Source of the DNA: Spirochaetia bacterium
GTDB taxonomy: Bacteria; Spirochaetota; Spirochaetia; SP-2023
DNA length: 64,000 nt
Direction of reading: 5' to 3'
Assembly: GCA_965225855.1 (NCBI GenBank)
Contig: CBDDCK010000005.1
Span: 1,920,001-1,984,000, forward strand
Below, one piece after another: positions 11,944 to 56,349 of the stretch. Position numbers and translations under genes: made by a program. Positions within the stretch are counted from its first letter, which is position 1. Each line of letters begins with the position of its first letter. The notes under the pieces are model-generated. The model searched no databases, was not told the origin of the DNA, and was given only the letters and a program-made list of their open reading frames with translations.

Positions 11944-12200
11944 TTGTTTGGCATCTGTACCATCAATTATTGTATCGCCTAGAAAATAAGCCTTGCCTTA
12001 GCCTTGTTTCTGGTTTTAATATTTGCAGCATTTGGGCTCATGCATGGCATTTATTTTGTCCTCTGTAAGCTAACGATGAGTTACTTTAGTAAATACTTCT
12101 AGGCGTTTCGTTTCTCTTTAGTTTTCTTGGGATAACTCTAATTTAGTCTGCTCACTTATATCGTCTCCATAGCAGATCAATAATGAAAAGCCACAATAGC
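11944..12200. repeat. Module A, dispersed ~250-bp repeat (second copy ~53248-53500)
   Basis: Near-identical sequence tttgtttggcatctgtacc...ctccatagcagat at both loci. Confidence 0.9.
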
Positions 12201-12326
12201 CCCCACCCCCAAGCACCACCCCACCGTCCCCACCCAATAACTGCCCCAGCCCCAACCAACAATCCAAAGCAACAAACCGAAATAGCCATACAAACGCAAT
12301 TGGGCAATTGGTTTGCCGATGCCAAT

Positions 12327-12487
12327 CTACAAGTCATCGCCTGTCTTGCTGCAATATAGCTTTCCGCCTTGGTATAAAGTATTGTTCCCACTTGGATCAA
12401 GGTCTTGTTCCACATTGGTGCAATATAACTTTCCAACTTGGTGCAATACATCTTTCCGCATTGGAGTAAGGTATTGATCGAAGGCGG
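12327..12487 (+). repeat. Module D, array of seven degenerate 23-bp units
   Basis: Units such as tgcaatatagctttccgccttgg, tataaagtattgttcccacttgg and atcaaggtcttgttccacattgg in exact 23-bp register. Confidence 0.9.
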
Positions 12488-12520
12488 AGAGATGTATCAT
12501 AGCAAGGCACTAAAAACCAT

Positions 12521-12691
12521 AAAAATAAGCAGGCCATAGACTTGCTAAAACCCAACAACATCGTAGAAAGCCAAAACTGGGACGACCTCAAATAGGGGCA
12601 GTATGCCGATGCTTTGACCTTAGCCCACAGCGTCAATGCTGGCATTTTAGACGACTTGCACAATATCTGGCTATATATTGCGGGCCTATGA
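12521..12691 (+). pseudogene. Module E, phage Mu gpF-like (head morphogenesis) N-terminal remnant
   Basis: Reads KNKQAIDLLKPNNIVESQNWDDLK*GQYADALTLAHSVNAGILDDLHNI; resembles the MuF N-terminal AIDF..W.D....AFTVA pattern (from memory); internal TAG at 12593. Confidence 0.55.
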
Positions 12692-12785
12692 CCCCAACTG
12701 GGATATATTGATACCACCCAATGGTTGGCATGGTTGGGTTGGCACGGTTGGCATGGTTGGCGTTGCGCCTGCTATCGCATACCCT

Positions 12786-12975
12786 CAAGCCTTTTGATTG
12801 GCATGGATTTTGAACCACCTTACAACACTAACACACAAAAAAAGTGCCCAAACATAAAAAAACTTACAAAAAGCTTGTATAGGCCTTGACGCAACACCCC
12901 CCCTAGCAAAATGGGGATTTACAGACTAGCCCGTATGGGTTGGTTAATCTTTATCCATTGTTGGAGGTATTGCTT
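12786..12975 (+). promoter_or_regulatory. Shared lipoprotein promoter/leader (module F) with C7 tract
   Basis: Phased A-tracts, TTGACG 12886-12891, C7 12897-12903, CAAAAT, RBS GGAGG; core conserved upstream of all five LP genes. Confidence 0.7.
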
Positions 12976-15444
12976 ATGTATAAGCTCAAACTACTTTTAT
13001 TGCCAGTAGCCTGGCTACTGGCCTTTATGGCCTTGGCCTGCGCCCCACCCGATGACGATGATCGATCTTCTGGGCCATCTTCTGGGCCGTCTATCAATAA
13101 TGCCATCTACGACTTTGCTACGGCTCTGTTAACCGTACAAGGTACTGACTTAAGTCCTACAGAAGCCCAAATCCAAACCATCGTAGTAGATGGCATAGCT
13201 TTAGATTCCTATACTGCAGATGACCCAGCCACTGGGCCAGATAGTAACGGTCTTGCAAAAGGTAAGTACCGTATTAAAAGCGATGGCACAGCGATTTGGC
13301 TTAGACTTACCGATCGACATAAAGCTGTTCTTGAGGCCAAGGTGGGTAGCAATGGTAGAAAAGATGGGTTGCTTAGCGTTGGCTCTGGTGCTTGGGCGGG
13401 TTTAAATACACCTAAAGACTTGGACGTTAGTAATATACCCGAAAATAAGCAGTCTAAAGTATCCGATGACAATCAGCCATCTAAGCAAGCTGAAGAAGAC
13501 GAACAAGACGAACAAGCTGAAGAAGAGTCGCCTAAGCAAACTGAAGTCGAACAAGCTGAAGAAGTCGAACAAGCTGAAGATAAGCAGTCGCATGAACTAC
13601 CCGAAGCTGCAATTACCCGTGCAACCTACCATGTTGGCACGGCGCTGTTAACCTTGCAAGGTACTCACTTAAGTGCTACAACTGCGACCCAAGCCCAAAT
13701 CCAAACCATTACGGTAGATGGCTTAGCCTTAAGTTCCTATACTGCAGATGGCACAGCCACTGGGCCAGATAGTCGTGGTCTTGCAAAAGGTAAATACCGC
13801 ATTGCAAACGCTGGCACAGCGCTTTGGCTTTACCTTACCGATCAACATAAAACTACTCTGAATGGCAAGACAGGTATGGATAGCAATGGTCTAAGAGAAG
13901 GGTTGCTTAGCGTTGGCACTGGTACTTGGGCGGGTTTAGATACAGCCAAAGACTTGGCCGTTAGTGGAAACCCCGAAGCTACAATTACCGGTGCAAGCTA
14001 CAATGTTGGCACGGCTCTGCTAACTGTACAAGGTACTCACTTAGGTAGTGCGACCCAAGCCCAAATCCAAACCATCACGGTAGATGGCTTAGCCTTAAGT
14101 TCCTATACTGCAGATGGCACAGCCACTGGGCCAGATAGTCGCAGTCTTGCAAAAGGTAAGTACCGCCTGCATAGCGCTGGCACAGCGCTTTGGCTGAAAC
14201 TTACCGATCGACATAAAACTACTCTGAATGGCAAGACAGGTATGGATAGCAATGGTCTAAAAGATGGGTTGCTTAGCGTTGGCACTGGTGCTTGGGCGGG
14301 TTTAAATACAGCCAAAGCCTTGGCCGTTAGTGGAAACCCTGCAATTACCAGTGCAAGCTACCATGTTGGCACGGCGCTGCTAACTGTACAAGGTACTCAC
14401 TTAGGTAGTGCGACCCAAGCCCAAATCCAAACTATCACGGTAGATGGCTTAGCCTTAAGTTCCTATACTGCAGATGGCACAGCTACTGGGCCAGATAGTC
14501 GTGGTCTTGCAAAAGGTAAGTACCGTATGAAAAGCGATGGCACAGCGCTTTGGCTTTACCTTACCGATACCGATAAAGATGCTCTGAATGGCAAAACAGG
14601 TATGGATAGCAATGGTCTAAAAGATGGGTTACTTAGCGTTGGCACTGGTGCTTGGGCGGGTTTAAATACAGCCAAAGACTTAACCGTTAGTGGAAACCCC
14701 GCACCCGCAATTACCAGTGCAACCTACAATGCTGCTACAGGTAAATTAGTGATTACAGGCACTAATTTACCAAAAGCAGTTACAGGCTGGGACTTCACCA
14801 AATTGAGGCTTGTCGCAGGTAATGGTCGTAATAGTCAACCATTATTATGGCACAGACCAACCGGTATAAACAGAGCCACAGGTTCTGCAGCAAGTGCAAC
14901 AAGCTTAACGATTACTTTAAAGGGTAGTGAACACAGTAAAGCCAATAGTATATTGGTTAAGAATGGTGAAAGTGATGATGCTGGTGCATACAACCTGGAA
15001 GCAGCAGCAGGATTTGCAGGTGGTAGCGCAGAAGACACAAGCAATAACCCGATTACTGTCAGTGGCTACAAAAGCTATCTCCACAGCTTAAACTACTTTG
15101 CTAATAATGGCAAGTTATTGATTCAGGGTAAAAATTTACCGACAACAATTGCAGACTGGGACTTTAGCAAATTGACGCTTGTATCCGGTGATGGTAGTAA
15201 GGAATACACATTACCCCAGCACGCAACCGCAGATGCAAATACAGCCACAGGTTCTGATGCAAATATAGGCGGCGTAATAATTACTTTAAGCGGTACTGTA
15301 AAAGCCAAAGCCGAGAAGATACTGGTTAAGAATGGTGAAAGTGATGATGCTGGTGCATACAACCTTAAAGCAGCAGCAGGATTTGTAATTGGTAGTCCAG
15401 AAGACCCAACCACTTCAATTAGAGTTTTTGGTGTTAGTGAGTAG
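12976..15444 (+). CDS. Repeat-domain surface lipoprotein LP1 (X-stalk-X-X-X-Y-Y)
   Basis: RBS GGAGG then MYKLKLLLLPVAWLLAFMALA-C lipobox; four X and two Y beta-rich ~120-aa repeats. Confidence 0.88.
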   Translation: MYKLKLLLLPVAWLLAFMALACAPPDDDDRSSGPSSGPSINNAIYDFATALLTVQGTDLSPTEAQIQTIVVDGIALDSYTADDPATGPDSNGLAKGKYRIKSDGTAIWLRLTDRHKAVLEAKVGSNGRKDGLLSVGSGAWAGLNTPKDLDVSNIPENKQSKVSDDNQPSKQAEEDEQDEQAEEESPKQTEVEQAEEVEQAEDKQSHELPEAAITRATYHVGTALLTLQGTHLSATTATQAQIQTITVDGLALSSYTADGTATGPDSRGLAKGKYRIANAGTALWLYLTDQHKTTLNGKTGMDSNGLREGLLSVGTGTWAGLDTAKDLAVSGNPEATITGASYNVGTALLTVQGTHLGSATQAQIQTITVDGLALSSYTADGTATGPDSRSLAKGKYRLHSAGTALWLKLTDRHKTTLNGKTGMDSNGLKDGLLSVGTGAWAGLNTAKALAVSGNPAITSASYHVGTALLTVQGTHLGSATQAQIQTITVDGLALSSYTADGTATGPDSRGLAKGKYRMKSDGTALWLYLTDTDKDALNGKTGMDSNGLKDGLLSVGTGAWAGLNTAKDLTVSGNPAPAITSATYNAATGKLVITGTNLPKAVTGWDFTKLRLVAGNGRNSQPLLWHRPTGINRATGSAASATSLTITLKGSEHSKANSILVKNGESDDAGAYNLEAAAGFAGGSAEDTSNNPITVSGYKSYLHSLNYFANNGKLLIQGKNLPTTIADWDFSKLTLVSGDGSKEYTLPQHATADANTATGSDANIGGVIITLSGTVKAKAEKILVKNGESDDAGAYNLKAAAGFVIGSPEDPTTSIRVFGVSE

Positions 15445-15513
15445 GGTTTGGTTATTGCGGTAAGCAATGCTCTTGGTTGGCTTATTGTTCGCTCTTAGAG
15501 AATAGGCTTAGTC

Positions 15514-15558
15514 GGCAAGCAAGGTTTGGGCTTTAGACCAAGCTTTGCTTGCCTTTTT
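15514..15558 (+). terminator. Intrinsic terminator after LP1 (module G)
   Basis: Stem ggcaagcaaggtttgg...ccaagctttgcttgcc followed by TTTTT. Confidence 0.7.
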
Positions 15559-15634
15559 GGTGGCACTATGGCTAGTATTCCACTAGCAAGCGGGTTGGTG
15601 GATTTTTGGGTTTGGTAAATATTAGCACTTATGG

Positions 15635-16645
15635 TTACTGAAATTTGCCAAACCATTGTGCATCTATAGGAAGTAATTTTTGTCCTATTAAAGACATGTC
15701 TCCTTCCATAGGGCCTAAAGCAATTACATTGAGTGCACCTGCTTTGGCTGCCATATAGGCTGCCTGTTCCAACGGTAGACCATCGGCTACTGCCCCGACA
15801 AAAGCCGCATCAAAGCTATCTCCAGCCCCTGTGGGGTCAAGCACTGGAAATCTTTCGCCAATTGGATACGGCGGTATATGCAAAGGTTCTTTTTCTCTGC
15901 TATAAATAGTAGAACCATAAGCACCTTTTTTTAGATGTATAATCCGCAACCTTGGGTAGTTTTCAAACAGTGCTTGCACAGCAGCTTCAATTTGCGTCAC
16001 CGCCCTGACTTCTGGTATAGGGTGATCTGCTGCCAAAAGCAATTCAATCTCACTAGGAAGTAGAATAGTACAGTGCTGCATTACTACCCCTGCCAATTCT
16101 TCAAAACTGCGCCCTTGGAGCAGTTCTGGCCTAAGATTGGGGTCAAAACTAATTGCACAAGGATTTTGCTCGGAGCAACCAAAATGCTGTACGGCTTGCT
16201 TGATTGCCGAGCACATAATATCACTAACCATTAGAGAACAACCCATGACGTGAAAGATATCTGGTTGTCGAAGCACTGCCCATTGGCCCGATCGCAATGG
16301 CAAATCATCTGCTGCCGTGCCGGCTATATGGTAAATAAACTCACGATTGCCATCTTCATCGTAAGCTACAAAAGCTACGGCACTGGGCTTAGTGCTTTGC
16401 CAAATTTGGCTGCAGTCCACTCCGTCTTGCTTTAGCCTCTGTAATATGTTCTGCCCAAACTTGTCAAAACTAACCCCAGCTATAATTAGGCTTTGGTGGC
16501 CTAGCCTAGCGGCCGTACTGATAAATATACCGGGTGCTCCGCTAGCAAATGGGCCGATAAACTCATTTTTTTGCCCCAAAGGCATACCAGCCTTAGGACG
16601 CATAATCTCGACTAAAAGCTCTCCCAATGTATAAATTACTGCCAT
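15635..16645 (-). CDS. PfkB-family sugar kinase (tagatose-kinase-like)
   Basis: GELLVEIM, GPFASGAPGIF, SFDPNLR, DPTGAGDSF. Confidence 0.88.
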   Translation of the reverse strand: MAVIYTLGELLVEIMRPKAGMPLGQKNEFIGPFASGAPGIFISTAARLGHQSLIIAGVSFDKFGQNILQRLKQDGVDCSQIWQSTKPSAVAFVAYDEDGNREFIYHIAGTAADDLPLRSGQWAVLRQPDIFHVMGCSLMVSDIMCSAIKQAVQHFGCSEQNPCAISFDPNLRPELLQGRSFEELAGVVMQHCTILLPSEIELLLAADHPIPEVRAVTQIEAAVQALFENYPRLRIIHLKKGAYGSTIYSREKEPLHIPPYPIGERFPVLDPTGAGDSFDAAFVGAVADGLPLEQAAYMAAKAGALNVIALGPMEGDMSLIGQKLLPIDAQWFGKFQ

Positions 16646-16672
16646 AAGACGTTCCTAATGATTTTCTATATT

Positions 16673-17638
16673 TTACGTTCGGCTCAATATTCCGATTTTA
16701 CGTTTGTTTTGTGCATCAATATACACCGCAATAATGATAATAACCCCCTTAACAATCAATTGGTAAAAGTAAGGTATCTTTAGCAAGTTCATACCATTAT
16801 TAATAATGCCAATGATAAAGGCTCCTATAAAAGTTCCAATAATTGAACCATAGCCCCCAGATAGGCTTGTACCACCCAATACAGCTGAGGCGATGGCATC
16901 TAGTTCAGAACCTTGGGCGACATTGGGCTGTGCAGAATAAAGACGAGAGGCCAATAGAATACCACTCAGGCTACACATCAAGCCAGAGATACCATAGACA
17001 ATTACCTCAACCCTGGGGATATGGATTCCGACATACCGTGCGGCCTCACGGTTGCCGCCAATAATCTTTGCTTGCCGGCCAAACTTGCTCTTTTCTAAAA
17101 TAATATGAGTAGCCACGAGCGATATTACAACAATATAAATGGAAACGGGCACCAAGAATATCCGATTATTGCCCAAAAATAGGGCAAGCTCATTTTCTAT
17201 AGATACGGGTTTGGAGTCGGTAATAGCATACGTTATACCTCGGAAAATCCCCATAGTAGCCAAAGAGACAATAAAAGCGGGTATCTTGAGCCTAGAAATC
17301 AACAGGCCATTCAGCAGCCCCATCAAAATACCACCGACAAAGGCAGCAGCAAGTGCTAATGTAAATTGATGAGTATAATGCAGCATAACGGCAAAAATAA
17401 TGCTGACAAACGCAATGATAGAACCGATAGATAAGTCAATACCAGCTATCATCAATACAAAGGTCATACCAAAGCCCGTCAAGGCGATAATCGCTGTCTG
17501 GTTTAGAATATTCAAAATATTATTCGGGGTAAAGAAGTACCTGCTCGCCAATGAAAAAGCTATGATTAGGAGTAGCAGAGATAAGAATATTCCCTGTAAT
17601 GAATGGCTTTTGTGAGCGAAAAAACGCATAGATTGCAT
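16673..17638 (-). CDS. Sugar ABC transporter permease (RbsC-like)
   Basis: GIDLSIGS, IPAFIVSL, ELDAIASAVLGGTSLSGG. Confidence 0.95.
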   Translation of the reverse strand: MQSMRFFAHKSHSLQGIFLSLLLLIIAFSLASRYFFTPNNILNILNQTAIIALTGFGMTFVLMIAGIDLSIGSIIAFVSIIFAVMLHYTHQFTLALAAAFVGGILMGLLNGLLISRLKIPAFIVSLATMGIFRGITYAITDSKPVSIENELALFLGNNRIFLVPVSIYIVVISLVATHIILEKSKFGRQAKIIGGNREAARYVGIHIPRVEVIVYGISGLMCSLSGILLASRLYSAQPNVAQGSELDAIASAVLGGTSLSGGYGSIIGTFIGAFIIGIINNGMNLLKIPYFYQLIVKGVIIIIAVYIDAQNKRKIGILSRT

Positions 17639-17644
17639 AGATTA

Positions 17645-19151: not shown

Positions 19152-19239
19152 AATATGGCAAACCCAGCAGAATATTTGATCAATAATTATACATCACTTA
19201 TCCACAATAATCTATCGCATATAGCTCCAAGACAATCGA

Positions 19240-20250: not shown

Positions 20251-20527
20251 AAAATAGATAATAAAAGTTCACAAACCCATACAGTCTGTAGCATTACGCT
20301 CTACTATACGAGAGGAAGAAAAAGTGACAAGAGGCATACAATATTTTTTGCACTTTTTTTAGGGCAGTTGCTAGAGTTTTATAAAATAACTATTAACAAA
20401 CACACAAAAAGTAGAAATACAATAGTCTTGTCCGATTTATTGCAATCGAATGGTGAATTTATACAGATTTTGTCTAGTTTCTGCTTTGCTTAGGCTTGGC
20501 CAAAGTTGTTTGGGAGAAGAGCCCCGA

Positions 20528-20935
20528 CTAAATAGTGATAAGAAACCCGACTAAATACCCAGAAGAGCCGCAACTAAATAGGGATAAGAAACCCGGCTAA
20601 ATACCCAGAAGAGCCGCAGCTAAATAGTGATAAGAAACCCGACTAAATACCCATAAGAGCCGCAACTAAATAGTGATAAGAAACCCGACTAAATACCCAG
20701 AAGAGCCGCAACTAAACAGGGATAAGAAACCCGACTAAATACCCAGAAGAGCCGCAACTAAACAGGGATAAGAAACCCGACTAAATACCCAGAAGAGCCC
20801 CGACTAAACAGGGATAAGAAACCCGACTAAATACCCAGAAGAGCCGCAACTAAATAGTGATAAGAAACCCGACTAAATACCCAGAAGAGCCGCAACTAAA
20901 TAGTGATAAGAAACCCGACTAAATACCCAGAAGCC
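20528..20935 (+). repeat. Module B tandem array, 9 x 46 bp (alternating 23-bp A/B units)
   Basis: ctaaatagtgataagaaacccga alternating with ctaaatacccagaagagccgcaa; CTAAA recurs every 23 bp from 20528 to 20919 (18 units). Confidence 0.97.
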
Positions 20936-21017
20936 CATATAGCCCAAGCTAAAGTACCCTAACACAAAAAAAGTGCCAAAAACATAAAAAAAGTTTGTAA
21001 AAAGCCCTATATGGGTC

Positions 21018-22564: not shown

Positions 22565-22722
22565 TAAGAGAGTCTCTTAATGCCCAACAAGAGATTCTCT
22601 TAATAAGAGACCTTCTTAATAACTAACAAGAATTTTTTGTAACAAGATAAACTTTGGCCAAGCCTTGCTTGCCTTTTTGGTGGGCAGTATGGCTAGCAAT
22701 AGTCGTTTCATTTTGCGTGCAA
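22565..22722. repeat. Module G downstream repeat with palindromic 23-bp-type units
   Basis: taagagagtctcttaatgcccaa and related units; also at 30384-30452 and 56219-56290. Confidence 0.8.
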
Positions 22723-22853
22723 ATTTACAAATGTACAGGCATAGAGCGCAGCCTAGAAAACTTTGCCTATGGCTTTTTGCGTTTAATGGAGATTTTAGGA
22801 TTAGGACACAGTTCAAAAACACAGAATTGCATAAATTACTAATTACAAAAATA

Positions 22854-26174: not shown

Positions 26175-26792
26175 ATGAAATTTATAAAGTATGCTCTGCC
26201 GATTAGTCTTTCGGTAGTGTTAATTGCGGCTATAGGCTTTGGGGTGGGTTTTGCGGCCAACATTCAAAATACGTTTAGCATAGCGGGTTCTAAGCAAAAT
26301 TATCTGTGGCGCAAAGCATTCTGGCGCAGCGCAACGGTAGCCGATGTGCAAAAGCTTATTGCCAATGGAGCAGATGTTACCAAGGCTGACGAGCAAGGAA
26401 TGAGCCCATTGGCTCTGGCTGCCATGATCAGTCAAGATGAAGAGATAATCGAACTATTGGTAGATGCTGGTGCCGATGTCAATGCCCCTACTGCGGATTG
26501 GGGCTGGACGCCGTTATTTTGGGCAGCAATGAATAATACCAATCCGCAAATTATTAAAACTCTGGTGGAAAAAGGAGCTAATGTTGAAGAACGCTGTGTT
26601 GGTATCCACTCCACCCCGTTGATCGATGCGGTGGTACACAACCCCAGTTCGGCAGTAGTTCAGGCTTTACTAGATGCTGGTGCTAACCCCAACGCCAAAG
26701 ATGACAAAGGTTTATCTGCTATCGATTATGTGCGAATGGATGGTAATCATCACAAAGACAACGATGTTTACCAAATGTTGGTTAGCAGATAA
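26175..26792 (+). CDS. Exported or membrane-anchored ankyrin-repeat protein
   Basis: N-terminal hydrophobic segment; GMSPLALAA, GWTPLFWAA, STPLIDAV, LLDAGANPN repeats. Confidence 0.88.
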   Translation: MKFIKYALPISLSVVLIAAIGFGVGFAANIQNTFSIAGSKQNYLWRKAFWRSATVADVQKLIANGADVTKADEQGMSPLALAAMISQDEEIIELLVDAGADVNAPTADWGWTPLFWAAMNNTNPQIIKTLVEKGANVEERCVGIHSTPLIDAVVHNPSSAVVQALLDAGANPNAKDDKGLSAIDYVRMDGNHHKDNDVYQMLVSR

Positions 26793-26929: not shown

Positions 26930-27497
26930 TTACTTGGTATTTGGCTGAACGTGATTAATAAAGTACTAGCCCAGTAGTCAATGCTAAGGGAACCAACCCG
27001 GGCGTGGGTTTAAGCCCCGATAGCAGCCAAAAGTTAGACTAGATAGCCCAAAGGCTGGACAAATTATTACAAAAGCGCAATTCCCAAATTTAGAGAGCGA
27101 AGGCAAAGGCATTTTGGAAGTGATGGCACGAATGCACGCCAGCGCAATGCACTTGGCTTACGGCATGATAGACTACCATGCGCAGCAACAAATCCAAAAC
27201 ACTATATGGCCAAAGTTGTTTGCGCAAAGTGCTTTCGGTATATACCCAGAAGAGCCCGACTAAATACGGAGAGAGCTTCGGCTAAATACGGGAAGCCAAT
27301 ATAGCCAAAACTATTGATCATTGCATGGAAACAACCAAAGGCCAACCAAACACCACCCCAACCCCACCCAATAACTGCCCCAGCCCCAACCAACAAGCCA
27401 AAGCAACAAGCCGAAATAGCCATACAAACGCACATACAAACGCAATTGGGCAATTGGGCAATTGGGCAATTGCCCAATTGCGTTTGCCGATGCGAAT

Positions 27498-27714: not shown

Positions 27715-27885
27715 AAAAATAAGCAGGCCATAGACTTCCTAAAACGCAACAACATCGTAAAAAGCCAAAACTGGGACGACCTCAAATAGGGCCAGTATGC
27801 CGATGCTTTGACCTTAGCCCACAGCGTCAATGCTGGCATTTTAGACGACTTGCACAATATCTGGCTATATATTGCGGGCCGATGA
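27715..27885 (+). pseudogene. Module E, MuF-like remnant (copy 2)
   Basis: KQAIDFLKRNNIVKSQNWDDLK*GQYADALTLAHS; TAG at 27787. Confidence 0.55.
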
Positions 27886-28159
27886 CCCCAACTGCGATAT
27901 ATTGATACCGCCCAATGGTTGGCATGGTTGGGTTGGCACGGTTGGCATAGTTGGCGTTGCGCCTGCTATCGCATACCCCCAAGCCTTTTGATTGGCATGG
28001 ATTTTGAACCACCTTACAACACTAAGACACAAAAAAAGCACAAAAAACTTACAAAAAGCTTATATAGGCCTTGACGCAACACCCCCCTAGCAAAATGGGG
28101 ATTTACAGACTAGCCCGTATGGGTTGGTTAATCTTTATCCATTGTTGGAGGTATTGCTT

Positions 28160-30346: not shown

Positions 30347-30414
30347 ATGTCAATAAGAATTTACCAAAGGTTGCCATAACAATTAAGAGAGTCTCTTAAT
30401 GCCCAATAATAGAG

Positions 30415-30459
30415 TGTCTTAATACCCAACAAGAAAGTTTCTTGTTGGGTATTAAGACA
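30415..30459. repeat. Perfect 45-bp palindrome overlapping the SDR stop codon
   Basis: tgtcttaatacccaacaagaaa-g-tttcttgttgggtattaagaca. Confidence 0.9.
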
Positions 30460-40347: not shown

Positions 40348-40497
40348 AGGGCCTCTCTAAAGATCGGTTTCAATGCCAAACATACAAAATTTTTTCGGTA
40401 GCAATTAAAGCAAGCCTACTTTGACTACAGTTTACGTAACGTAAGCGTTAGCCGTATTTATCTATCTTAGCTATTTTTATGATTATTCGTGACTTAC

Positions 40498-40658
40498 CAC
40501 AATACACCTTTCCGCCTTGGTATAAAGTATTGTTCCGTATTACTGAAATATAGCTTTCCGCCTTGGTATAAAGTCTTGTTCCGCATTGGTGCAATATAAC
40601 TTTCCAACTTGGAGCAAGGTATTGATCCGCCTTGGATCAAGGCCTTGATCGAAGGCGG
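40498..40658 (+). repeat. Module D array, seven 23-bp units
   Basis: Exact 23-bp register; ends in the near-palindrome ccgccttggatcaagg|ccttgatcgaaggcgg. Confidence 0.9.
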
Positions 40659-40691
40659 AAAGTTATATCATAGCAAGGCACTAAAAACCAT

Positions 40692-40862
40692 AAAAATAAG
40701 CAAGCCATAGACTTCCTAAAACCCAACAACATCGTAGAAAGCCAAAACTGGGACGACCTCAAATAGGGCCAGTATGCCGATGCTTTGACCGTAGCCCACA
40801 GCGTCAATGCTGGCATTTTAGACGACTTGCACAATATCTGGCTATATATTGCGGGCCGATGA
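40692..40862 (+). pseudogene. Module E, MuF-like remnant (copy 3)
   Basis: KQAIDFLKPNNIVESQNWDDLK*GQYADALTVAHS; TAG at 40764. Confidence 0.55.
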
Positions 40863-41123
40863 CCCCAACTGCGATATATTGATACCGCCCAATGGTTGGC
40901 ATGGTTGGCGTTGCGCCTGCTATCGCATAGCCTTAAGCCTTTTGATTGGCATGGATTTTGAACCACCTTACAACACTAACACACAAAAAAAGTGCCCAAA
41001 CATAAAAAAACTTACAAAAAGCTTGTATAGGCCTTGACGCAACACCCCCCCTAGCAAAATGGGGATTTACAGACTAGCCCGTATGGGTTGGTTAATCTTT
41101 ATCCATTGTTGGAGGTATTGCTT

Positions 41124-43110: not shown

Positions 43111-43155
43111 GGCAAGCAAGGTTTGGTCTTTAGGCCAAACTTTGCTTGCCTTTTT
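43111..43155 (+). terminator. Intrinsic terminator after LP4
   Basis: ggcaagcaaggtttggtct-tt-aggccaaactttgcttgcc then TTTTT. Confidence 0.72.
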
Positions 43156-43242
43156 GGTGGTACTATGGCTAGCAAGTCGTTTCATTTTGCTTGCAACGTT
43201 TGCGCCGTTACAGTTATCTCCTTGGGATTTTTGCATAATAGA

Positions 43243-46580: not shown

Positions 46581-46637
46581 GACCATCGCCGATAGCAACG
46601 CCGGCAACCGGCTACTGTGGCCGGTGATTGTTTGGGC

Positions 46638-48905: not shown

Positions 48906-48924
48906 AAGGGGCCTTCCTTCTTCG

Positions 48925-49575
48925 TTAAATTCTGGTCAAGACAGAAAGAAGCAAACCGTTTAGCCACAATGTTGCTAGGCTTAGTAGATAAATCGCCAGT
49001 GATGTAATGGCGAGTAATGCGGTGATTTGCATGGTGATCTTGCTGCGCTGCATGTTGAGGAAGCGAAGCGGGCCGTTGATTAATTTGCCGATCCAGACAT
49101 CAATATGGCTTATAGCTAGATTGTATTTGTTGCTAAACAAAGCGCTACAGAGACGGAAAAACAGCAGTAAAGCACAAACAATCAATAGAGTTTGTACCAT
49201 CGAAACGATGAATGTCAAAAACTGAAAAACCATGCTTAGGAATACGACTCCAAAGGGTGCGCTTTGGGTTGCACGCAAAGAGCCGATGAACCTCTGCAAC
49301 AAACTAATGCTAAATAGTGCAAAGATGGGGGATAAGTCGATGATTCCACCGATGACTGTAAATGGCAAACGGCGGAAGAATCGCAAGAAAGGGTCGGTGA
49401 CCAAGCAGAGCCAGTAACCAAGGGTGTGTGTTTCTAAGGTATAACTATTGACAATCCAAGAGAGTATAATGCGGGCAATCAATAGGTAATAATAGGCACT
49501 TAGCAATAAGTTTAGTAAAGCAAATATTTGGGAAGCGAGCATAGAGGCAATGAGCATAGTATAAACACCAATCAA
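48925..49575 (-). CDS. yggT: YggT-family membrane protein
   Basis: RIILSW, VTDPFLRFFRR, IDLSPI. Confidence 0.8.
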   Translation of the reverse strand: MIGVYTMLIASMLASQIFALLNLLLSAYYYLLIARIILSWIVNSYTLETHTLGYWLCLVTDPFLRFFRRLPFTVIGGIIDLSPIFALFSISLLQRFIGSLRATQSAPFGVVFLSMVFQFLTFIVSMVQTLLIVCALLLFFRLCSALFSNKYNLAISHIDVWIGKLINGPLRFLNMQRSKITMQITALLAITSLAIYLLSLATLWLNGLLLSVLTRI

Positions 49576-49615
49576 ACTTTATCGAAATGTAAGGGGGATC
49601 ACTGCAATAAGAATA

Positions 49616-51052
49616 TTACAATTTCTCTATCAACATAGAGCATTTACCAGAAGGAATGGGTAAAGTCTTTCTTTTATAGTTCAAAATATCAACGGTAAAA
49701 TAGTAAAGTTTCTCCGATTCCAAGCGGATTTCCCAGCCACGAAAGGTTTTGCGTGTCTGAATGGAAATAACGTTGCGCCTCAATGATAGGTTGCGTATAC
49801 CCATTTCTTCTATATTGGGAATCACCCAGTCCACCGTTTTACGTGGTAGACTAATATTCAAGCCTAAAATGGTTTCAATGAACAGATTCACCGTAATTAG
49901 AGACGTCATATGTGCATAGCCACCCTGTGCACACATAAAGTTGCCGCTGTTATCTGGGCTTGGCATCAGTGCCGGTTTGTTTTCATAGGGCATGTAGGCC
50001 TGCCAAAAATCATGCTGATATTCACTTTCGAGAAAGTATGTATCCAAGATATGGTACATATGCATAATGGCAAATTCACGGGCCTGACGATGGTATTGGT
50101 AGGCTTCTAGCCCTTTTATAATAACAAAATTCAATGCAGGCATAACCGAACCATAGCAGCCACGGCCTTCCGCACTGAAGTCCGGATGATGTTGGGCCAA
50201 AGAGGGGAAGGGGTTTTCTGAACCAAACCACTCTGGGGTTCTCAATTTGCTCATCATTCGTTCTAAACGTTCTTCGTTTAACACATCACAAAGTAGCAGC
50301 CAATAACTACATAAGGTTGCACTGCCAATCATTTTTCCTTTTCTATCCAAATCGTAGAAAAAATTAGTATTAGGGTTCCACATTTGGTTCATGATCCGTG
50401 TTTTTAACGAAAAGTAATATTTGCGATAGCGGAAGGCAATTTCTTTATCATTGAGCAAATCGCCAATGATGGCCATATAATAGGCATTGAGTAGTTGTTG
50501 GGCATTAAAATCAATTAGGTAAACAGCGTTATCTTGTTGACGAGCCGAGTTTTGCCAACCGACTGCAGCTAGGGGGGCTTTTAACAAACCTAATTTTTTA
50601 TCGTAAAATTGGGCATCAATCCACTCAAAATATTTTTCCAAAACTGGAAAAATATTTTGAATACGTTTTTTCATACCAACTTTGTGATAAAAATGGTACT
50701 CAATCCAGGAAAATAACGGAGGATTGACATTTTCTGGATTCCCTTCTTGTGGAATAACTTCACCGCTTTGAAAGTCATAATTAGCCCGAATGGCCCCATC
50801 TTCTTCTTGAAACTGGTAAAAATAATCAATTTGCTGAATGGCCAGTAGAGGTTTTTCCTGATATACCAGAGAGAAAGCAAACATAGTTGTTTCAAATTGA
50901 TTTAACACACTAGAATTGGATTTATGAAATAAAAAAGATTTTGGTTCATCTGGGTCTGTGTACCAAAATTTTTCCAGTTTTAGCCAAGTTTTTTGATAAC
51001 CTTGAATAAAGTCCTGATCGTAATAGATCAATTTGGGGAAATCTATATCCAC
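49616..51052 (-). CDS. MGH1/GH63-like (alpha/alpha)6 glycoside hydrolase
   Basis: NPPLFSW, MWNP..FFYD, NPFPSL, G.V.P.LN..IIKGL pattern. Confidence 0.7.
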   Translation of the reverse strand: MDIDFPKLIYYDQDFIQGYQKTWLKLEKFWYTDPDEPKSFLFHKSNSSVLNQFETTMFAFSLVYQEKPLLAIQQIDYFYQFQEEDGAIRANYDFQSGEVIPQEGNPENVNPPLFSWIEYHFYHKVGMKKRIQNIFPVLEKYFEWIDAQFYDKKLGLLKAPLAAVGWQNSARQQDNAVYLIDFNAQQLLNAYYMAIIGDLLNDKEIAFRYRKYYFSLKTRIMNQMWNPNTNFFYDLDRKGKMIGSATLCSYWLLLCDVLNEERLERMMSKLRTPEWFGSENPFPSLAQHHPDFSAEGRGCYGSVMPALNFVIIKGLEAYQYHRQAREFAIMHMYHILDTYFLESEYQHDFWQAYMPYENKPALMPSPDNSGNFMCAQGGYAHMTSLITVNLFIETILGLNISLPRKTVDWVIPNIEEMGIRNLSLRRNVISIQTRKTFRGWEIRLESEKLYYFTVDILNYKRKTLPIPSGKCSMLIEKL

Positions 51053-51271
51053 AAAATATCTCCTAAATTAAGGGAAGCTATCTCTAATCTATTGGAACAC
51101 GAGTTAAAGTAAATAGCCCAACGCAATAATCAAGAATCGGCCAAATGGCTAGAAAGCCCAACCGCAAATTTTACGAAAATGCCTGATTGATAAAAAATTG
51201 GAGTAGTTAAATATGCGTATGCCTACTATATTCATTCAACGGTCTTGTATCTTTTATTATTTTGGTGAACA

Positions 51272-52111
51272 ATGCTTGCGATGTTTCCACAACTAAATGG
51301 TACTGCCAGTTTTTTGCGCTATACAGACGATGCAGAAAGTGCTTATTTGCAAAAAATTGCCAAAACCGATGCTTGGAATAATGTGAACCAATGGTTAGTT
51401 CCTTCTTTAGCTTTGGCAACTTTTGTTATTGTTTATTGGCTTAACCGAAAAAAATTAGAAATTCTACTATACGGTAACCCAGCAAATTCTAATGAGCTTT
51501 TCACTTTTATTCATATAGCCATACAGTTTTTTATTGCATTGCTGCACATTGTGCTGCTAGCATATCTAGTTAAGCTCGTGCGTATTTTAGGCTATTTTCG
51601 TAAATCTAGTGAAAATGTACAAACAGCAGGAGAGCCAGAAATACATCAGCTCAATGACTATGTTATTTATAGGATAGCCGCTTGTCCCGATATGGCTTTG
51701 TCTTTGGTCTTGACCAGTCGCTCTGGCGTGCGGCGTTATCGTTGGCACTATTATTTAGATGAGGCGCCGATAACCCCTTTGCCACAACAGCGCAAGCTGC
51801 TACCGCTTTATGTCCAAAAGAAATCCTGGGAAAAATTAAGTGAATATAACCTAGAACAGCTTGCCCAAGTTTTTCCCGACAAAGTTTGGTTGAAACTTTG
51901 CCAAGAATCTGAACAGTATTGCAATTTGCGTTTTCATATTGCAGATGTACCATACTATGGTTTTCATTTTTACTATTTGTGTGCCATGGGCTTGGCTCCT
52001 AAAGATAATGATTTTTCAGATGCCAATCATAACAATGCTGAATTATCTGGCTTGGCTACACTACTTCAGGCTATACCTTCAGTTGATAACAAATATAAGA
52101 TATTGCCCTAG
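51272..52111 (+). CDS. Hypothetical membrane protein
   Basis: 279-aa ORF with two TM segments; start uncertain. Confidence 0.6.
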   Translation: MLAMFPQLNGTASFLRYTDDAESAYLQKIAKTDAWNNVNQWLVPSLALATFVIVYWLNRKKLEILLYGNPANSNELFTFIHIAIQFFIALLHIVLLAYLVKLVRILGYFRKSSENVQTAGEPEIHQLNDYVIYRIAACPDMALSLVLTSRSGVRRYRWHYYLDEAPITPLPQQRKLLPLYVQKKSWEKLSEYNLEQLAQVFPDKVWLKLCQESEQYCNLRFHIADVPYYGFHFYYLCAMGLAPKDNDFSDANHNNAELSGLATLLQAIPSVDNKYKILP

Positions 52112-52168
52112 ATGATTTTATGGTTTTAATAAGAAAGAGACGAAACATAAGTGAATTAGGGGGAGCCA

Positions 52169-53209
52169 TTGGAGAAAAAACTGCCAGAGTTAACAGAGAT
52201 TATTTACAGACTGGAAGATTTCCATTCCAAAAATAATGTATGGTTGGATATTACCGAGGGGAAAATTATAGAATTGGCACCAGAAATTTTGGAAGCCAAG
52301 CCAGAATTACTAGGCGATAGTATTTTCCCTTTGCCTGATTGGTCATCGGGCCAAGGTTATGAATTGATGCAGAAATTTGCCAGTAGATACCAATACGATA
52401 ATGAATTACATAAAATATTGCGCAGTCGGCACCAAGTATTTAAACGTTATCGCAACTACTTAAAACTATATCCAGAATTAAAGCAGGCTTGGCATGATTT
52501 TAAAGAACAATATTTTTTTCAGTATCTACAATCATGGTATGCTTGCGAATTTCCTAAAGCGCGGGGCTTGCAAAAAGCATTGCAGGGTTTAAATTGCTCT
52601 TTACATTCAGCTATTGAGGGTAGAGATGGGAATCTAAAAAATTATTTGGGGTTGTTGGAAGAAGAAACAGAAGCGAGTCTAGTTGAATCCCTTTTGCCGG
52701 AAGATTTTGAATTTTGCGAGACGATAGGGGAAACGGCTGCTATGTTTTCTCAGCTTAGTATAACAGAAATTGAATTGCGTACTTTTGCCTTATTCCATTT
52801 CAGTGATGAGTACCATATTCTAAGTGGTTCACATTTCAAGCGTTTGCACAGCCTTTGTAACAATGTATTTTGGTTGAATCGTATCGATCTGGTAAGCCCT
52901 GCGGGGGATTGTATTGCTAGTTTGTATTGGGCTTGGCACAAAGCGATGCAACCCAAATGCCAACCAGAGGGCCACAACCAAGCGCGATTGATTATGTGTA
53001 TCAGCAATAAAGAATATACCCAACTCAAATTAGAAAACCATCTGTTGAGCTATTTTTTATCACAACGACAAAAATATGGTATACAAATAGTCGAGCTCCA
53101 TCTTAGTTGTGCTGCTGAAAAGTTTTATACAGAAACACTATTGGAATATCAATTAGAACAAAAAGGCAGAATCTGCCATATATCTTTTAGCTCTGAAAAA
53201 ATTAGATAG
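52169..53209 (+). CDS. Hypothetical protein with UPF0158-like N-terminal region
   Basis: LPDWSSGQGYELMQKF..VFKRYRNYL..YPE..W pattern. Confidence 0.6.
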   Translation: MEKKLPELTEIIYRLEDFHSKNNVWLDITEGKIIELAPEILEAKPELLGDSIFPLPDWSSGQGYELMQKFASRYQYDNELHKILRSRHQVFKRYRNYLKLYPELKQAWHDFKEQYFFQYLQSWYACEFPKARGLQKALQGLNCSLHSAIEGRDGNLKNYLGLLEEETEASLVESLLPEDFEFCETIGETAAMFSQLSITEIELRTFALFHFSDEYHILSGSHFKRLHSLCNNVFWLNRIDLVSPAGDCIASLYWAWHKAMQPKCQPEGHNQARLIMCISNKEYTQLKLENHLLSYFLSQRQKYGIQIVELHLSCAAEKFYTETLLEYQLEQKGRICHISFSSEKIR

Positions 53210-53247
53210 CAGAGAATTTTTCTATATATATCTGGATAATAAAAACA

Positions 53248-53680
53248 ATTTGTTTGGCATCTGTACCATCATTGTATCGCCTAGAAAATAAGCCTTGTCT
53301 TAGCTTTGTCTTCTGGTTTGAATATTTGCAGCATTTGGGCTCATGTATGGCATTTATTTTGTCCTCTGTAAGCTAACGATGAGTTACTTTAGTAAATACT
53401 TCTAGGCGTTTCGTTTCTTCTTTAGCTTTCTTGGGATAGCTCTAATTTAGTCTGCTCACTTATATCGTCTCCATAGCAGATAAATAATTAAAAAGCAACA
53501 ATAGCCCCCCACCCAATAACTGCCCCAGCCCCACCCAACACCCCAAAGCAACAAACCCGATCAACACTGTATGGCCAAAGTTGTTTGCGCAAAGCGCTTT
53601 CGGTATATATCCAGAAGAGCCGCAAGGTAAAGGCGAAAGGGCTTCAGATAAAAAACCCTAAAACATAGCCAAACGATTAT
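53248..53680. repeat. Modules A, C and B (dispersed repeats) upstream of LP5
   Basis: Matches 11944-12280 and 27200-27310. Confidence 0.85.
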
Positions 53681-53763
53681 TAATGATAGGCTGGTAAAAG
53701 AAATTTTAGCTAAGGCTAAAGCAGAACAATACCGATAAATAAATACCCCAGCCCCCTCTAACC

Positions 53764-53880
53764 ATAGAATTACCTCGCACCTATATAATAGAATCGACCT
53801 AATTCTATCAATAGATTTACCTCGCACCTATTGATAGAATTGACCTAAATCTATCAATAGAATTACCTCCCACCTATTAA
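53764..53880. repeat. Module H, five alternating ~23-bp units
   Basis: ATAGA at 53764, 53788, 53811, 53834 and 53857; units atagaattacctcgcacctat.. and atagaatcgacctaattctatca. Confidence 0.85.
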
Positions 53881-54331
53881 TACCCTAGTCTTTAATGAAA
53901 TTTTCTACATCGGCACATAATCCACGACCTATACAACAATCATCGGAAATCGTTGCCCAAATTCTGAACGCCCCTGAAAGAATAATATCCTGTTTTCATT
54001 TTCATTAAATGTTTCACCTTTTGGAGATTGCCCCATAGTGTAATCGAAGTGTAATCGAAGTGTAATCAAGTATTTTATTCAATTCTACACTTTCCCACCC
54101 CAAAGGCCAAACAAAGGCCCTTAAGCCTTTTGATTTCAACACCCACAAGCCTTTTGATTGGCATGGATTTTTAACTACCTTACAACACTAAGGACCTAAC
54201 AAAAAAAGCACAAAAAAACTTACAAAAAGCCTTATATAGGCCTTGACGCAACACCCCCCTAGCAAAATGGGGCACTATGCACTAGCCCGTATGGGTTGGT
54301 TAATCTTTATCCATTTTTGGAGGTATTGCTT

Positions 54332-56092
54332 ATGTATAAGCACAAACTACTTTTATTGCCTGTAGCCTGGCTACTGGCCTTTATGGCCTTGGCCTGCGCC
54401 CCACCCGATGACGATGATCGATCTTCTGCGCCGTCTAAGCCGACTATCAATAACGCCATCTACGACTTTGCTACGGCTCTGTTAACCGTACAAGGTACTC
54501 ACTTAAGTCCTACAGAAGCCCAAATCCAAACCATCGTAGTAGATGGCGTAGCCTTCAGTTCCTATACTGCAGATGACGATGCCACTGGGGTAAATAGTAA
54601 AGGTCTTGAACAAGGTAAGTACCGTATTAAAAGCGATGGCACAGCGCTTTGGCTTAGACTTACCGATGACGATAAAGCTGCTCTGAATGGCAAGACAGGT
54701 ATGGATAGCAATGGTCTAAAAAAAGGGTTGCTTAGCGTTGCCTCTGGTGCTTGGGCGGGTTTAAATACAGCCAAAGACTTGGAAGTTAGGAATGTACCCG
54801 AAAATAAGCAGTCTAAAGTATCCGATGACAATCAGCCATCTAAGCAAACTGAAGACGAACAAGCTGAACAAGCTGAAGAGGAGTCGCCTAAGCAACCTAA
54901 AGACGAAGAAGACGAACAAGATGAAGAAGTCGAACAAGCTGAACAAACCGAAGAAGTCGAAGATAAGCAGTCTAAGACCGAAGCCGAAGAGGATTCGCCT
55001 AAAGCTGCAATTACCGGTGCAACCTACAATGTTGGCACGGCGCTGTTAACCTTGCAAGGTACTCACTTAAGTCCTACAGAAGCCCAAATCCAAACCATCG
55101 TAGTAGATGGGGTAGCCTTAAGTTCCTATATTGCAGATGCCACAGCCACTGGGCCAGATAGTCGCAGTCTTGCAAAAGGTAAGTACCGCATGAAAAGCGA
55201 TGGCACAGCGCTTTGGCTTTACCTTACCGATCAACATAAAGCTACTCTGAATGGCAAGACAGGTATGGATAGCAATGGTCTAAAAGAAGGGTTGCTTAGC
55301 GTTGGCACTGGTGCTTGGGGAGGTTTAGATACAGCCAAAGACTTGGCCGTTAGTGGAAACCCCGCACCCACAATTACCAGTGCAACCTACAATGCTATTA
55401 CAGGCGTGTTAGTGATTACAGGTACTAATTTACCAGCAGCATTTACAGGCTGGGACTTTAGCAAATTGAGGTTTGTCGCAGGTGATGGTCGTACTAAGAG
55501 TCTCTCATTATCCCCGCATACAACCGCAGGTGAAGATAGAGCCACAGGTTCTGCAGCAAGTGTAACAAGCTTAACGATTACTTTAACGGGTAATGAAAAA
55601 GCCAAAGCCAATGCTATATTGGTTAAGGATGGTGATAGTGATAATGCTGGTGCATACAACCTGGAAGCAGCAGCAGGATTTGCAGGTGGTAGCGCTGAAG
55701 ACACAAGCAGCCCTATTACCGTTAGTGGCTACGCAAGCCAGCTCACCGAAGTACAATACTATTCTAGTTCAGGCAAGTTAATTATTTTAGGTAGCAGGTT
55801 ACCGACAACAATTGCAGAGTGGGACTTTAGCAAATTGACGCTTGTATCCGGTGATGGTAAGAAGAGATACCCATTACCCCAGCACGCAGTAGGTGAAGAC
55901 ACAGCCACAGGTTCTGCAGCAAATACAAGAGGCGTAATTATTATTTTAAGCGGTAGTGTAAAAGCGGAAGTCGAGAAGATACTGGTTCAGATTGGTGGTA
56001 ATGATGATGCTGGTAACTACAACCTGGAAGCAGCAGCAGGATTTGTAACGGGTAAGCCAGAAGACCCAACCACTGGTATAACAAGGTTTTAA
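54332..56092 (+). CDS. Repeat-domain surface lipoprotein LP5 (X-stalk-X-Y-Y)
   Basis: Lipobox MALA-C; promoter with C6 tract at 54254-54259. Confidence 0.88.
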   Translation: MYKHKLLLLPVAWLLAFMALACAPPDDDDRSSAPSKPTINNAIYDFATALLTVQGTHLSPTEAQIQTIVVDGVAFSSYTADDDATGVNSKGLEQGKYRIKSDGTALWLRLTDDDKAALNGKTGMDSNGLKKGLLSVASGAWAGLNTAKDLEVRNVPENKQSKVSDDNQPSKQTEDEQAEQAEEESPKQPKDEEDEQDEEVEQAEQTEEVEDKQSKTEAEEDSPKAAITGATYNVGTALLTLQGTHLSPTEAQIQTIVVDGVALSSYIADATATGPDSRSLAKGKYRMKSDGTALWLYLTDQHKATLNGKTGMDSNGLKEGLLSVGTGAWGGLDTAKDLAVSGNPAPTITSATYNAITGVLVITGTNLPAAFTGWDFSKLRFVAGDGRTKSLSLSPHTTAGEDRATGSAASVTSLTITLTGNEKAKANAILVKDGDSDNAGAYNLEAAAGFAGGSAEDTSSPITVSGYASQLTEVQYYSSSGKLIILGSRLPTTIAEWDFSKLTLVSGDGKKRYPLPQHAVGEDTATGSAANTRGVIIILSGSVKAEVEKILVQIGGNDDAGNYNLEAAAGFVTGKPEDPTTGITRF

Positions 56093-56349
56093 ATTGGTAA
56101 GTAGGGTTTCTTTTAACCTCGCTTGCCCAATAGCTCTTAGAGCAGCTAAGTGAAAGCTAGCGGGAGGCCAACCAAGTAAATGCGGTAAGCAATGCTTGGT
56201 TGGCCTGTTGTTGGGCATTAAGAGAGTTTCTTAATGCCCAACAACAGAATTTCTTAATAACTAACAAGAGAAACTTTGGCCAAGCCTTGCTTGCCTTTTG
56301 GGTGGGCACTATGGCTAGCAACTCACTACCAAGCGGGTAGTGGCTTACG

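Follow-up and report, generated by a model that had tools for sequence, protein, structure and literature searches.

The window analysed here, a stretch of 64,000 nucleotides of a Spirochaetia bacterium (GenBank assembly GCA_965225855.1, contig CBDDCK010000005.1, positions 1,920,001 to 1,984,000), carries five genes for predicted lipoproteins (LP1 to LP5) set between mosaic repeats. They are members of a family of 108 genes that was probably amplified as the cargo of natural mini-Mu elements, i.e. short units with the ends of a transposable phage and no transposase of their own, and reshuffled by recombination between the copies, likely for surface variation. The original prediction, made from the window, was of a five-gene system, a view that has to be given up since the five are a sample of the larger family. 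In the following, C3, C4 and C5 are contigs of the studied genome, n-numbers are paralogues of the family, and G001 and G003 are congeners.

Domain profiles applied to the whole genome return 114 open reading frames (ORFs) with an X or Y domain, 108 of which start with a signal peptide and a cysteine. These full LP genes are spread over all five contigs (57 on the + and 51 on the - strand) and occupy 219,711 of the 2,712,625 bases, corresponding to 8.1% of the genome, a share to which the repeated flanks add about 119 kb; the genes are scattered, 103 gaps between them having a median of 16 kb and no same-strand neighbour lying within 3 kb. There are 24 architectures among them, mostly leader-X-spacer-X(n)-Y(2-4); the leader is found in all 108, a complete terminal domain in 106, and the promoter motif also in 106, with a tract of C6 in 20 genes, C7 in 84, C8 in one and C9 in one. 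The family was not found in 40 relatives by a one-protein search, in 400 genomes of the class by a profile search, or in the 2.40 of 2.41 Mb scanned of G003. Searches of Pfam and NCBIfam assign the five proteins of the window to no real family, weak CrtC and low-complexity matches being discarded, and an Atlas search returns unnamed clusters only, at 0.94. Within the window, the five genes are indeed same-strand paralogues with a shared leader, the domain profiles return exactly the architectures first described (Table 1), and the common promoter motif and ribosome-binding site (RBS) are located ahead of all five (motif/RBS at 12886/12963 for LP1, 21018/21096 for LP2, 28071/28147 for LP3, 41034/41111 for LP4 and 54243/54319 for LP5).

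The flanks are built from one set of modules in different combinations. Self-comparison and module search reproduce the upstream orders that had been proposed (LP1 A-C-D-E-F, LP2 B-F, LP3 B-C-D-E-F, LP4 D-E-F, LP5 A-C-B-H-F), and self-comparison also recovers the downstream pairings, LP1 with LP4 and LP2 with LP3 in the proximal part, LP1 with LP5 (15538-15595 and 56280-56338) and LP2 with LP4 (22653-22722 and 43130-43196) at the distal end, the E-values of the flank matches, from 1e-11 to 0, being far past chance. These sequences had been described as unrecognised, which remains right for modules A, B and H, as they match no known origin; a good share of the flank sequences stems from the termini and decayed genes of transposable Mu-like phages. 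In particular, module C is found upstream of 25 LP genes, and the intact C4 copy of its gene matches a baseplate wedge family; module D lies upstream of 24 LP genes and downstream of 19, with eight solo copies; module E, matched to G001, aligns with a gpF-like protein of a congener at 46-63% identity (tblastn, E down to 3e-16), and a protein search finds the gpF remnant in 15 LP flanks. Modules H and H2 are each upstream of 26 LP genes and, in the complete element n33, both follow the phage left end; modules B, D and H are arrays, as is one module of the downstream flanks, and their 23-bp period is that of the end motifs. In the window, LP2 and LP4 keep a right end of the second of two types described below, LP1 and LP3 keep phage gene fragments and LP5 keeps neither, while phage tail-gene DNA lies just outside the LP2 terminus (22730-22788, matching the resident prophage at 84%). 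Flank-like DNA amounts to 130 kb near LP genes and to 11 kb at 69 distant loci, so that the modules are linked to the LP genes, as had been expected.

The termini are of two types, of which type 1, the main one, is also the end type of the resident prophage. A motif search finds 30 left and 33 right type-1 termini, and 6 left and 15 right termini of type 2; 29 of the 30 intact type-1 left ends are upstream of an LP gene and 27 of the 33 right ends are downstream, in the same orientation, and only one listed right end marks a geneless cassette remnant. At least a TG- or a CA-terminus in the right orientation is present in 53/108 cassettes and both ends in 20/108, and left and right ends form an inverted repeat, one motif recurring in each of them at offsets 8 and 31. 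A perfect 6-bp target duplication borders five of the 20 two-ended cassettes, compared with 0/20 at 4, 5 or 7 bp and a per-pair null of 0.0014; the five span 2.7-3.5 kb and have four different architectures. Complete elements include n33 (C5:45577-48292) and n99 (C5:1725605-1722378). The 6-mers at the junctions have a central TA in 24 of 67 distinct cases against a background of 7.9%, and this target preference makes the ends without a matched duplication look like true transposition junctions as well. Altogether, 71/108 cassettes hold at least one phage-derived piece (termini, end DNA or gene fragments, the n73 flanks lying outside that library). Both TG...CA ends, the 6-bp duplication, repeated subterminal motifs that are predicted to bind the transposase and the lack of an own transposase are the features by which 20 copies qualify as mini-Mu, and the cassettes have very probably spread by transposition of the short unit.

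Because phage termini and remnants are part of the flanks, transposition, and not recombination alone, probably built the system. Moreover, some termini are nested in the flanks of other cassettes and were copied along with the shared outer sequence (n8, n39, n51 and n84; n20, n95 and n103; n5 and n28), and these are a direct source of the mosaic. The original prediction had instead drawn an analogy with the Neisseria intergenic mosaic elements (NIMEs); on a model of this kind, non-coding repeat arrays would do no more than favour homologous exchange around a few surface genes, and no transposition would take place. Mosaic arrays do flank the genes and recombination is pervasive, but this explanation, contradicted as to its sole mechanism already by the target duplications in 5/20 cassettes, has also to face the phage termini, the target preference and 108 genes in place of five; no dRS3 motif exists in the whole genome (0 found) and no IS110 or Y1/RAYT recombinase was found in this genome, 94% complete. 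It is very unlikely, and the Neisseria analogy is not supported.

The candidate helper is a Mu/B3-type prophage of about 36.1 kb (C5:1257688-1293766) with terminase, portal, repressor, transposase, ATPase, GemA, Mor, head and tail genes, in which Pfam rve, AAA_22, Mor and GemA score above cut-off and PHROG 310 and 296 are found. The whole genome has one rve-family transposase and one Mu_F gene, both inside this prophage; the transposase gene is intact and its product has no sequence match in PDB. The four marker proteins found in it are those used to detect transposable prophages in Leptospira, and phages of the B3 type make 6-bp duplications and rearrange genomes on transposing (PMC8705779). 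The left end of the prophage matches 32 LP upstream flanks and the right end 27 downstream flanks, in the same orientation, and the right end is intact at three different junctions in the assembly. A sugar kinase gene is split by the prophage, its halves lying at C5:1256566-1257687 (left junction) and C4:334200-334778 (right junction), which together with the other right junctions at C3 and C5 suggests a recent movement of the prophage in the population. At C5:1292520-1292880, part of a baseplate gene has given way to a 23-bp array resembling module D, whereas the C4 copy has this gene in full. As regards type 2, its motif was not found in G001 or G002, and G003 shows a left-end-like motif only.

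The same prophage ends could have been acquired in another way: each locus might be the scar of a separate full prophage whose inside was replaced by an LP cassette through recombination at the ends, so that the short unit never transposed. Fresh phage ends adjoin n68, n74, n90 and n114, many different internal phage fragments are present in the flanks, and the end class does not predict the nearest relative of the cargo (4/4 tests non-significant), all of which would fit. However, within the last 12 bases of the right end, 26/27 cassettes have an A where all prophage right ends have a G, a difference by which the cassette ends form a lineage of their own, yet these ends lie at distinct targets and with perfect duplications in five cases; independent prophage scars are an improbable origin.

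The second process to be considered besides mini-Mu transposition is recombination between the copies, which are pervasive patchworks made by gene conversion. Over 107 genes, 40.5% of the coding bases are in exact tracts of at least 100 bp common to another copy, a median of 12 donors tile one LP gene, and the shared tracts switch every 60-300 bp inside open frames. Distance correlations between parts, in the 83 genes with all parts, range from -0.05 to 0.20, far below the 0.61-0.70 obtained with interleaved sites; the more distant two sites are, the weaker their linkage in 4/4 domain classes (0/300 permutations), and RecA, RuvB and MutS are encoded in the genome. Assembly chimeras of a repeat family might in principle give mosaics too, several contig ends being in or near LP genes or the prophage and short-read contigs not bridging the LP genes. 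Against this stand a 2-Mb contig and clustered repeat (CRISPR) arrays of 13-20 kb that are intact in the assembly, the switching of tracts within open frames, the exact match of run X1 to unique flanks and the same patchwork in six proteins from other ENA contigs, which perhaps belong to the same population and are not counted as strain differences; mosaics of purely artefactual origin are extremely unlikely. Congruent module trees, modules unlinked to the LP genes and mis-assembly, the three outcomes named beforehand as fatal to a recombining surface system, were not encountered.

Selection is suggested by the ratio of nonsynonymous to synonymous differences (pN/pS), which amounts to 0.86-0.87 for X and, along the Y domains, to 1.24 [0.98-1.62] for the first, 1.45 [1.03-2.04] for the middle and 1.69 [1.35-2.16] for the last, the values being pairwise averages among recombining copies and not a codon-model test, a limitation that weighs against the account. 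On these sequence comparisons, change is favoured at the end farthest from the predicted anchor. Of the original idea of recombination-driven surface variation, the pervasive recombination and the amino-acid excess in Y are supported, and recombination as the only builder is not, transposition being probably involved as well. A selfish spread of the mini-Mu has been weighed as well, in which the lipoprotein is a passenger and conversion keeps the copies alike without any surface function; the 15-nt promoter spacer, which looks suboptimal, would agree with it. This reading is hard to reconcile with a cargo intact in 106/108 cassettes when the ends are lost in about half, with a pN/pS above 1 that rises towards the C-terminus and with the single geneless remnant among the listed right ends, and a mere passenger is to be regarded as slightly less probable still than the separate prophage scars.

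The X and Y domains are related (profile comparison 83%); across the copies, domains average 63-80% amino-acid identity. A structural model of the X-Y-Y part, built from a 66-row alignment, has a predicted local distance difference test (pLDDT) value of 92 and consists of three beta-sandwiches with one helix each; it superseded a first model from 10 rows, which was poor (pLDDT 60). The best solved match of Y is a domain of the surface-layer (S-layer) protein SbsC (Z 8.1, root-mean-square deviation 2.5, 92 residues aligned), the Z being middling and X having barely been compared alone, and Foldseek matches to immunoglobulin (Ig) tandems have TM-scores of at most 0.31. X and Y are thus predicted to be Ig-like repeats, the SbsC match showing an arrangement and no function. 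The corresponding unnamed Ig-like repeat profile has 445 representatives, and several of the 13 outside relatives that were scanned prove to be giant proteins carrying DUF4347, Big_9, cadherin, Calx-beta, RTX or type IX secretion system (T9SS) tail domains. The presence of cadherin, Big_9, Calx-beta, RTX or T9SS domains in giant proteins is typical of adhesins, and a role as surface stalk or adhesin is proposed because the relatives of the repeat include such multi-domain proteins. Each of the 108 proteins has an invariant cysteine after the signal peptide and no further cysteine, in a lipobox that reads FMALA-C in 75 and FMAFA-C in 29 (Ala at -3). The nearest outside relatives, P0135, P0148 and P0159 (ENA contigs of other organisms, with Y or with Y and X domains), have LFFA-C or LFT-C lipoboxes. 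From the single cysteine and the standard lipoboxes of these relatives we infer that the LP proteins are lipidated, with a doubt left by the Ala at -3; they are likely displayed on the surface, and the family likely varies the cell surface.

A related explanation keeps the same origin and gives the proteins another task, namely that a phage-related cargo shields the cell from phages by receptor masking, decoy or exclusion, with phages, in place of an animal host, driving the variation. The cassettes are made of phage DNA, the gene follows the gpF remnant in 15 flanks, and three CRISPR arrays with 577 spacers are a sign of heavy phage pressure; the relatives of the repeat are instead giant proteins with domains typical of adhesins, and the resident prophage is without an LP gene. 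A shielding function is unlikely, less so than the separate prophage scars. The three arrays are located at C5:1074300-1094800 (321 spacers), 662600-676000 (201) and 898800-902600 (55), the first beside a Cas12a-like gene and the third beside a Cas9-like gene, both named by eye. Among the 577 spacers, 12 match the own chromosome, including two that match the LP X domain (exact in 48 and 8 genes) without a TTTV protospacer-adjacent motif; with 2 of 12 self-matches for 8% of the genome there is no enrichment for the LP family, and none of the spacers matches the resident prophage.

Several observations weigh against the account of a mini-Mu cargo amplified and reshuffled for surface variation. 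No phage-derived piece was found in 37/108 cassettes and no intact terminus in 55/108, LP1, LP3 and LP5 among them; a matching duplication is absent in 15 of the 20 two-ended cassettes, and the duplications that match across cassettes (3) are near chance (about 1.9). An autonomous element with type-2 ends was looked for and not found. The resident prophage carries no X/Y gene, is without its terminal left bases in the C5 copy, and has a gpF whose similarity to the congener gpF matched by module E is no more than about 23%. In the last Y, the decay of linkage is non-significant at third positions (45/300 permutations). An Ala at -3 deviates from the usual lipobox pattern, and the site also reads as a signal peptidase I site. 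Finally, in the gene-order comparison described next, the G003 neighbour of an LP-flanking gene flanks another LP gene in 36/188 cases, close to the 149/764 of other breaks; a simple model in which the element is kept at both breakpoints is unsupported by this failed reciprocal test, and so are crossovers between cassettes as the cause of synteny loss.

The comparison of gene order rests on 1,052 orthologues in G003. None of 94 gene pairs separated by a cassette is adjacent in G003 against 572/953 other pairs, and from junctions matched for orientation and gap 12.7-15.6 syntenic LP junctions would be expected where 0/94 is observed; the GC skew is also less ordered than in G003 (lag-1 correlation of 0.19 versus 0.58). 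Deletion-type events, the loss of one partner copy and a preference for junctions that were already unstable all remain as origins of the breaks. Of eight empty sites tested, not one has both its neighbours side by side in G003. At breaks elsewhere, solo flank modules give 29/32 broken junctions versus 241/337, an effect that is weak once gap size is limited (7/8 versus 164/252).

Sequence data of other origin bear on individual junctions of the window. The ligase region is present at about 98% in runs X4 and X5, from another study, together with numerous LP-like contigs. Contigs that overlap in X4 lead from the 3' end of an LP gene through the type-2 terminus to the ligase gene, so that this junction appears to be shared between strains, the repeats making the link uncertain. 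One X7 contig of depth 3 has the sugar genes at about 98% and no LP sequence at 88% or more. A deletion of the sugar locus between LP3 and LP4 is not claimed, since X4 and X5 give no cover and the sole joint is in a shared repeat with 30 letters on one side. The glycine-tRNA ligase has 59-70% identity to its best 80 relatives, nearly all titled spirochaetes, which places the organism within the Spirochaetia.

The mechanism proposed for the mini-Mu cargo can be divided into successive steps. The Ig-like repeat is homologous to that of giant surface proteins, from which the lineage may have gained it, placing it behind a lipoprotein leader. One such gene would then have landed in a B3/Mu-type prophage, possibly right after gpF, and deletions would have reduced it to end-gene-end units of 2.7-3.5 kb. 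These units would have been copied in trans by the phage transposase, which would have left the TG...CA ends, the target preference and the 6-bp duplications that are seen as scars; the mosaic flanks would result from insertions that were repeated or nested, from newly captured phage ends and from erosion. Gene conversion, with repeat gain and loss, shuffles tracts of tens to hundreds of bases among the copies independently of the end type, as the patchwork described above shows. Selection may hold the frames open and favour amino-acid change in the membrane-distal Y domains, in which case a host receptor, a host defence protein or a phage would be expected to recognise these domains. More speculatively, the C tract between -35 and -10 might slip in length and tune which copies are expressed; C7 is short for a switch, and some of the C6/C7 differences could be sequencing errors. 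The paralogue n61 has the C9 tract and a spacer of 17 nt. Three further members are divergent: n47 (C5:353763-357602) and n55 (C5:571748-574801) have another promoter, with a 17-nt spacer, and alternating X and Y, and n41 (C5:206266-209289) has 74 copies of a 33-bp repeat ahead of one Y. They are a possible founder type, their Y domains being sister to the cassette family in a quick tree with few columns.

The single components of this system have known counterparts. Traits in common with phages of the B3/Mu type and the laboratory mini-Mu and mini-D3112 are the TG...CA ends, a 6-bp target duplication like that of B3 and Leptospira prophages, a 36-kb helper with TnpA, TnpB, Mor and GemA and the rearrangement of genomes (PMC8705779). 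Mini-Mu are named in that source only as engineered tools; unlike these, the units described here are natural, are found in dozens and each hold a single intact host surface gene, promoter included. The vlhA genes of Mycoplasma gallisepticum are similar in that they comprise as many as 70 variable lipoprotein genes of full length, with an ORF and a promoter apiece and with a simple repeat near the promoter, but they are in tandem and have a trinucleotide repeat (PMC4534519), whereas the LP genes are dispersed and bordered by phage ends; a GAA run is seen in 0/108 LP genes, in which a C6-C9 tract occupies the promoter spacer. Borrelia vlsE and vsp/vlp, Treponema tprK and Anaplasma msp2 also form mosaic surface proteins by segmental gene conversion, and vlsE and vsp/vlp are spirochaete lipoproteins, as is predicted for the LP proteins; in contrast, those systems have one expression site and silent donors, and here nearly every gene has its promoter motif, all have the leader and the predicted fold is Ig-like (PMC4534519).

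As mobile elements, the Orientia Rickettsiales amplified genetic element (RAGE), present in up to 92 mostly degraded, cargo-carrying copies (PMC10197636), and the potential mobile units (PMUs) or sequence-variable mosaics of phytoplasmas, which are amplified, carry cargo and alter gene order (PMC3750655), are comparable. RAGE is however conjugative and PMUs are multi-gene units with insertion sequence transposases, while here the vehicle is a transposable phage with a cargo of one gene, and this cargo stays intact while the vehicle decays (PMC10197636, PMC3750655). NIMEs share the mosaic non-coding arrays beside variable surface genes and a phage enzyme proposed as recombinase, but are dRS3-bounded repeats at syntenic sites beside unrelated genes; in the present case there is one gene family and no syntenic site (PMC1797815). 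In the literature searched, with most subscription journals and all supplements outside its scope, no natural mini-Mu family with a surface gene was found, and a mini-Mu as amplifier of a selected, variable surface gene family appears new. The Borrelia cp32 erp loci and the MuMenB surface antigens are reportedly prophage-borne surface lipoprotein genes, in whole prophages and with a few to about ten per cell; the LP genes are instead in about a hundred minimal elements.

The features of the window are collected in Table 1. Among the neighbouring genes, those for an outer-membrane efflux protein and an AcrB-type pump (6939-11877) end just ahead of LP1, and an ankyrin-repeat gene (26175-26792) precedes LP3. 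Elsewhere in the genome, other expanded families are present at C5:110000-132500, 769000-787000, 928000-942000 and 1649000-1659000, including TPR proteins that alternate with a repeated enzyme gene and six tandem lipoprotein-like paralogues. G003 has a dispersed family of eight large lipoprotein-like proteins unrelated to X/Y (e.g. C1:807115-810342, 863206-867267 and 989031-991049 of that genome), which adjoins a high-copy non-coding repeat and is possibly a parallel system.

Table 1. LP genes and flanking elements located in the window (positions from its first nucleotide).
Feature	Position	Strand	Basis and remarks
Module A, LP1 upstream flank	11944..12208	+	Matches 53248-53557; ahead of 8 LP genes, 0 solo copies
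Module C core, baseplate gene fragment of the resident Mu-like prophage	12271..12330	+	93% over 60 bp to C5:1291790-1291849
Module D, palindromic repeat array of 23/46-bp period	12331..12535	+	Occurs inside the prophage too
Module E, decayed and internally deleted Mu-like gpF (head morphogenesis) gene with in-frame stop	12521..12784	+	tblastn with congener gpF-like protein
LP1 predicted promoter, TTGACG, 15-nt spacer with C7 tract, CAAAAT	12886..12912	+	Motif in 106/108 genes
LP1, predicted lipoprotein, X-s-XXX-YY, 822 aa	12976..15444	+	Domain profiles; exact tracts from many paralogues (patchwork)
Module B, 46-bp (2 x 23) tandem array, 9.1 copies, ahead of LP2	20515..20933	+	Precedes 15 LP genes
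LP2, predicted lipoprotein, s-X-YY, 446 aa	21109..22449	+	Domain profiles
Type-2 right terminus ending CA, 280 bp beyond LP2 stop	22690..22729	+	Motif search
Two neighbouring prophage tail/baseplate fragments ahead of LP3	26988..27189	+	87% over 95 bp to C5:1290575-1290668; 92% over 119 bp to C5:1292058-1292176
Module E (gpF remnant) ahead of LP3	27715..27978	+	Module search
LP3, predicted lipoprotein, X-s-YYY, 657 aa, promoter tract C6	28160..30133	+	Domain profiles; shares its initial 333 bp exactly with paralogue n21
23-bp array with palindromic core, LP3 downstream	30384..30443	+	Downstream of 26 LP genes, 10 solo
LP4 upstream flank D-E-F, gpF remnant 40692-40938	40490..41123	+	Self-comparison and module search
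LP4, predicted lipoprotein, X-s-YYY, 639 aa	41124..43043	+	Domain profiles
Type-2 right terminus ending CA, 169 bp beyond LP4 stop, abutting the glycine-tRNA ligase gene	43170..43212	+	Motif search
LP5 upstream flank A-C-B-H-F, with the 23/46-bp array H at 53757-53882	53248..54331	+	Self-comparison and module search
LP5, predicted lipoprotein, X-s-X-YY, 586 aa, promoter tract C6	54332..56092	+	Domain profiles; X-Y-Y part modelled, pLDDT 92
LP5 downstream flank	56093..56354	+	No intact terminus found

The origin and the dispersal of large variable surface families are rarely visible in sequence, and here the vehicle can be traced by its scars, the genome retaining phage ends and target duplications along with a helper prophage. 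The case joins transposable phages, multigene surface variation and the loss of gene order, which are normally studied apart; the unnamed Ig-like repeat family now has a mapped variable part, and a natural mini-Mu with a selected cargo, whose ends and transposase come from a poorly known spirochaete lineage, provides a pair that is a candidate genetic tool. Going further, and with considerable doubt, a domesticated transposable phage may work as a surface-variation engine, in which the transposase seeds LP genes already wired for expression, conversion rewrites their tips, the slippery promoter tract selects among them and packaging by the helper moves alleles between strains. If true, the bacterium would own a surface repertoire without silent cassettes or a fixed expression site, at the cost of a scrambled genome.

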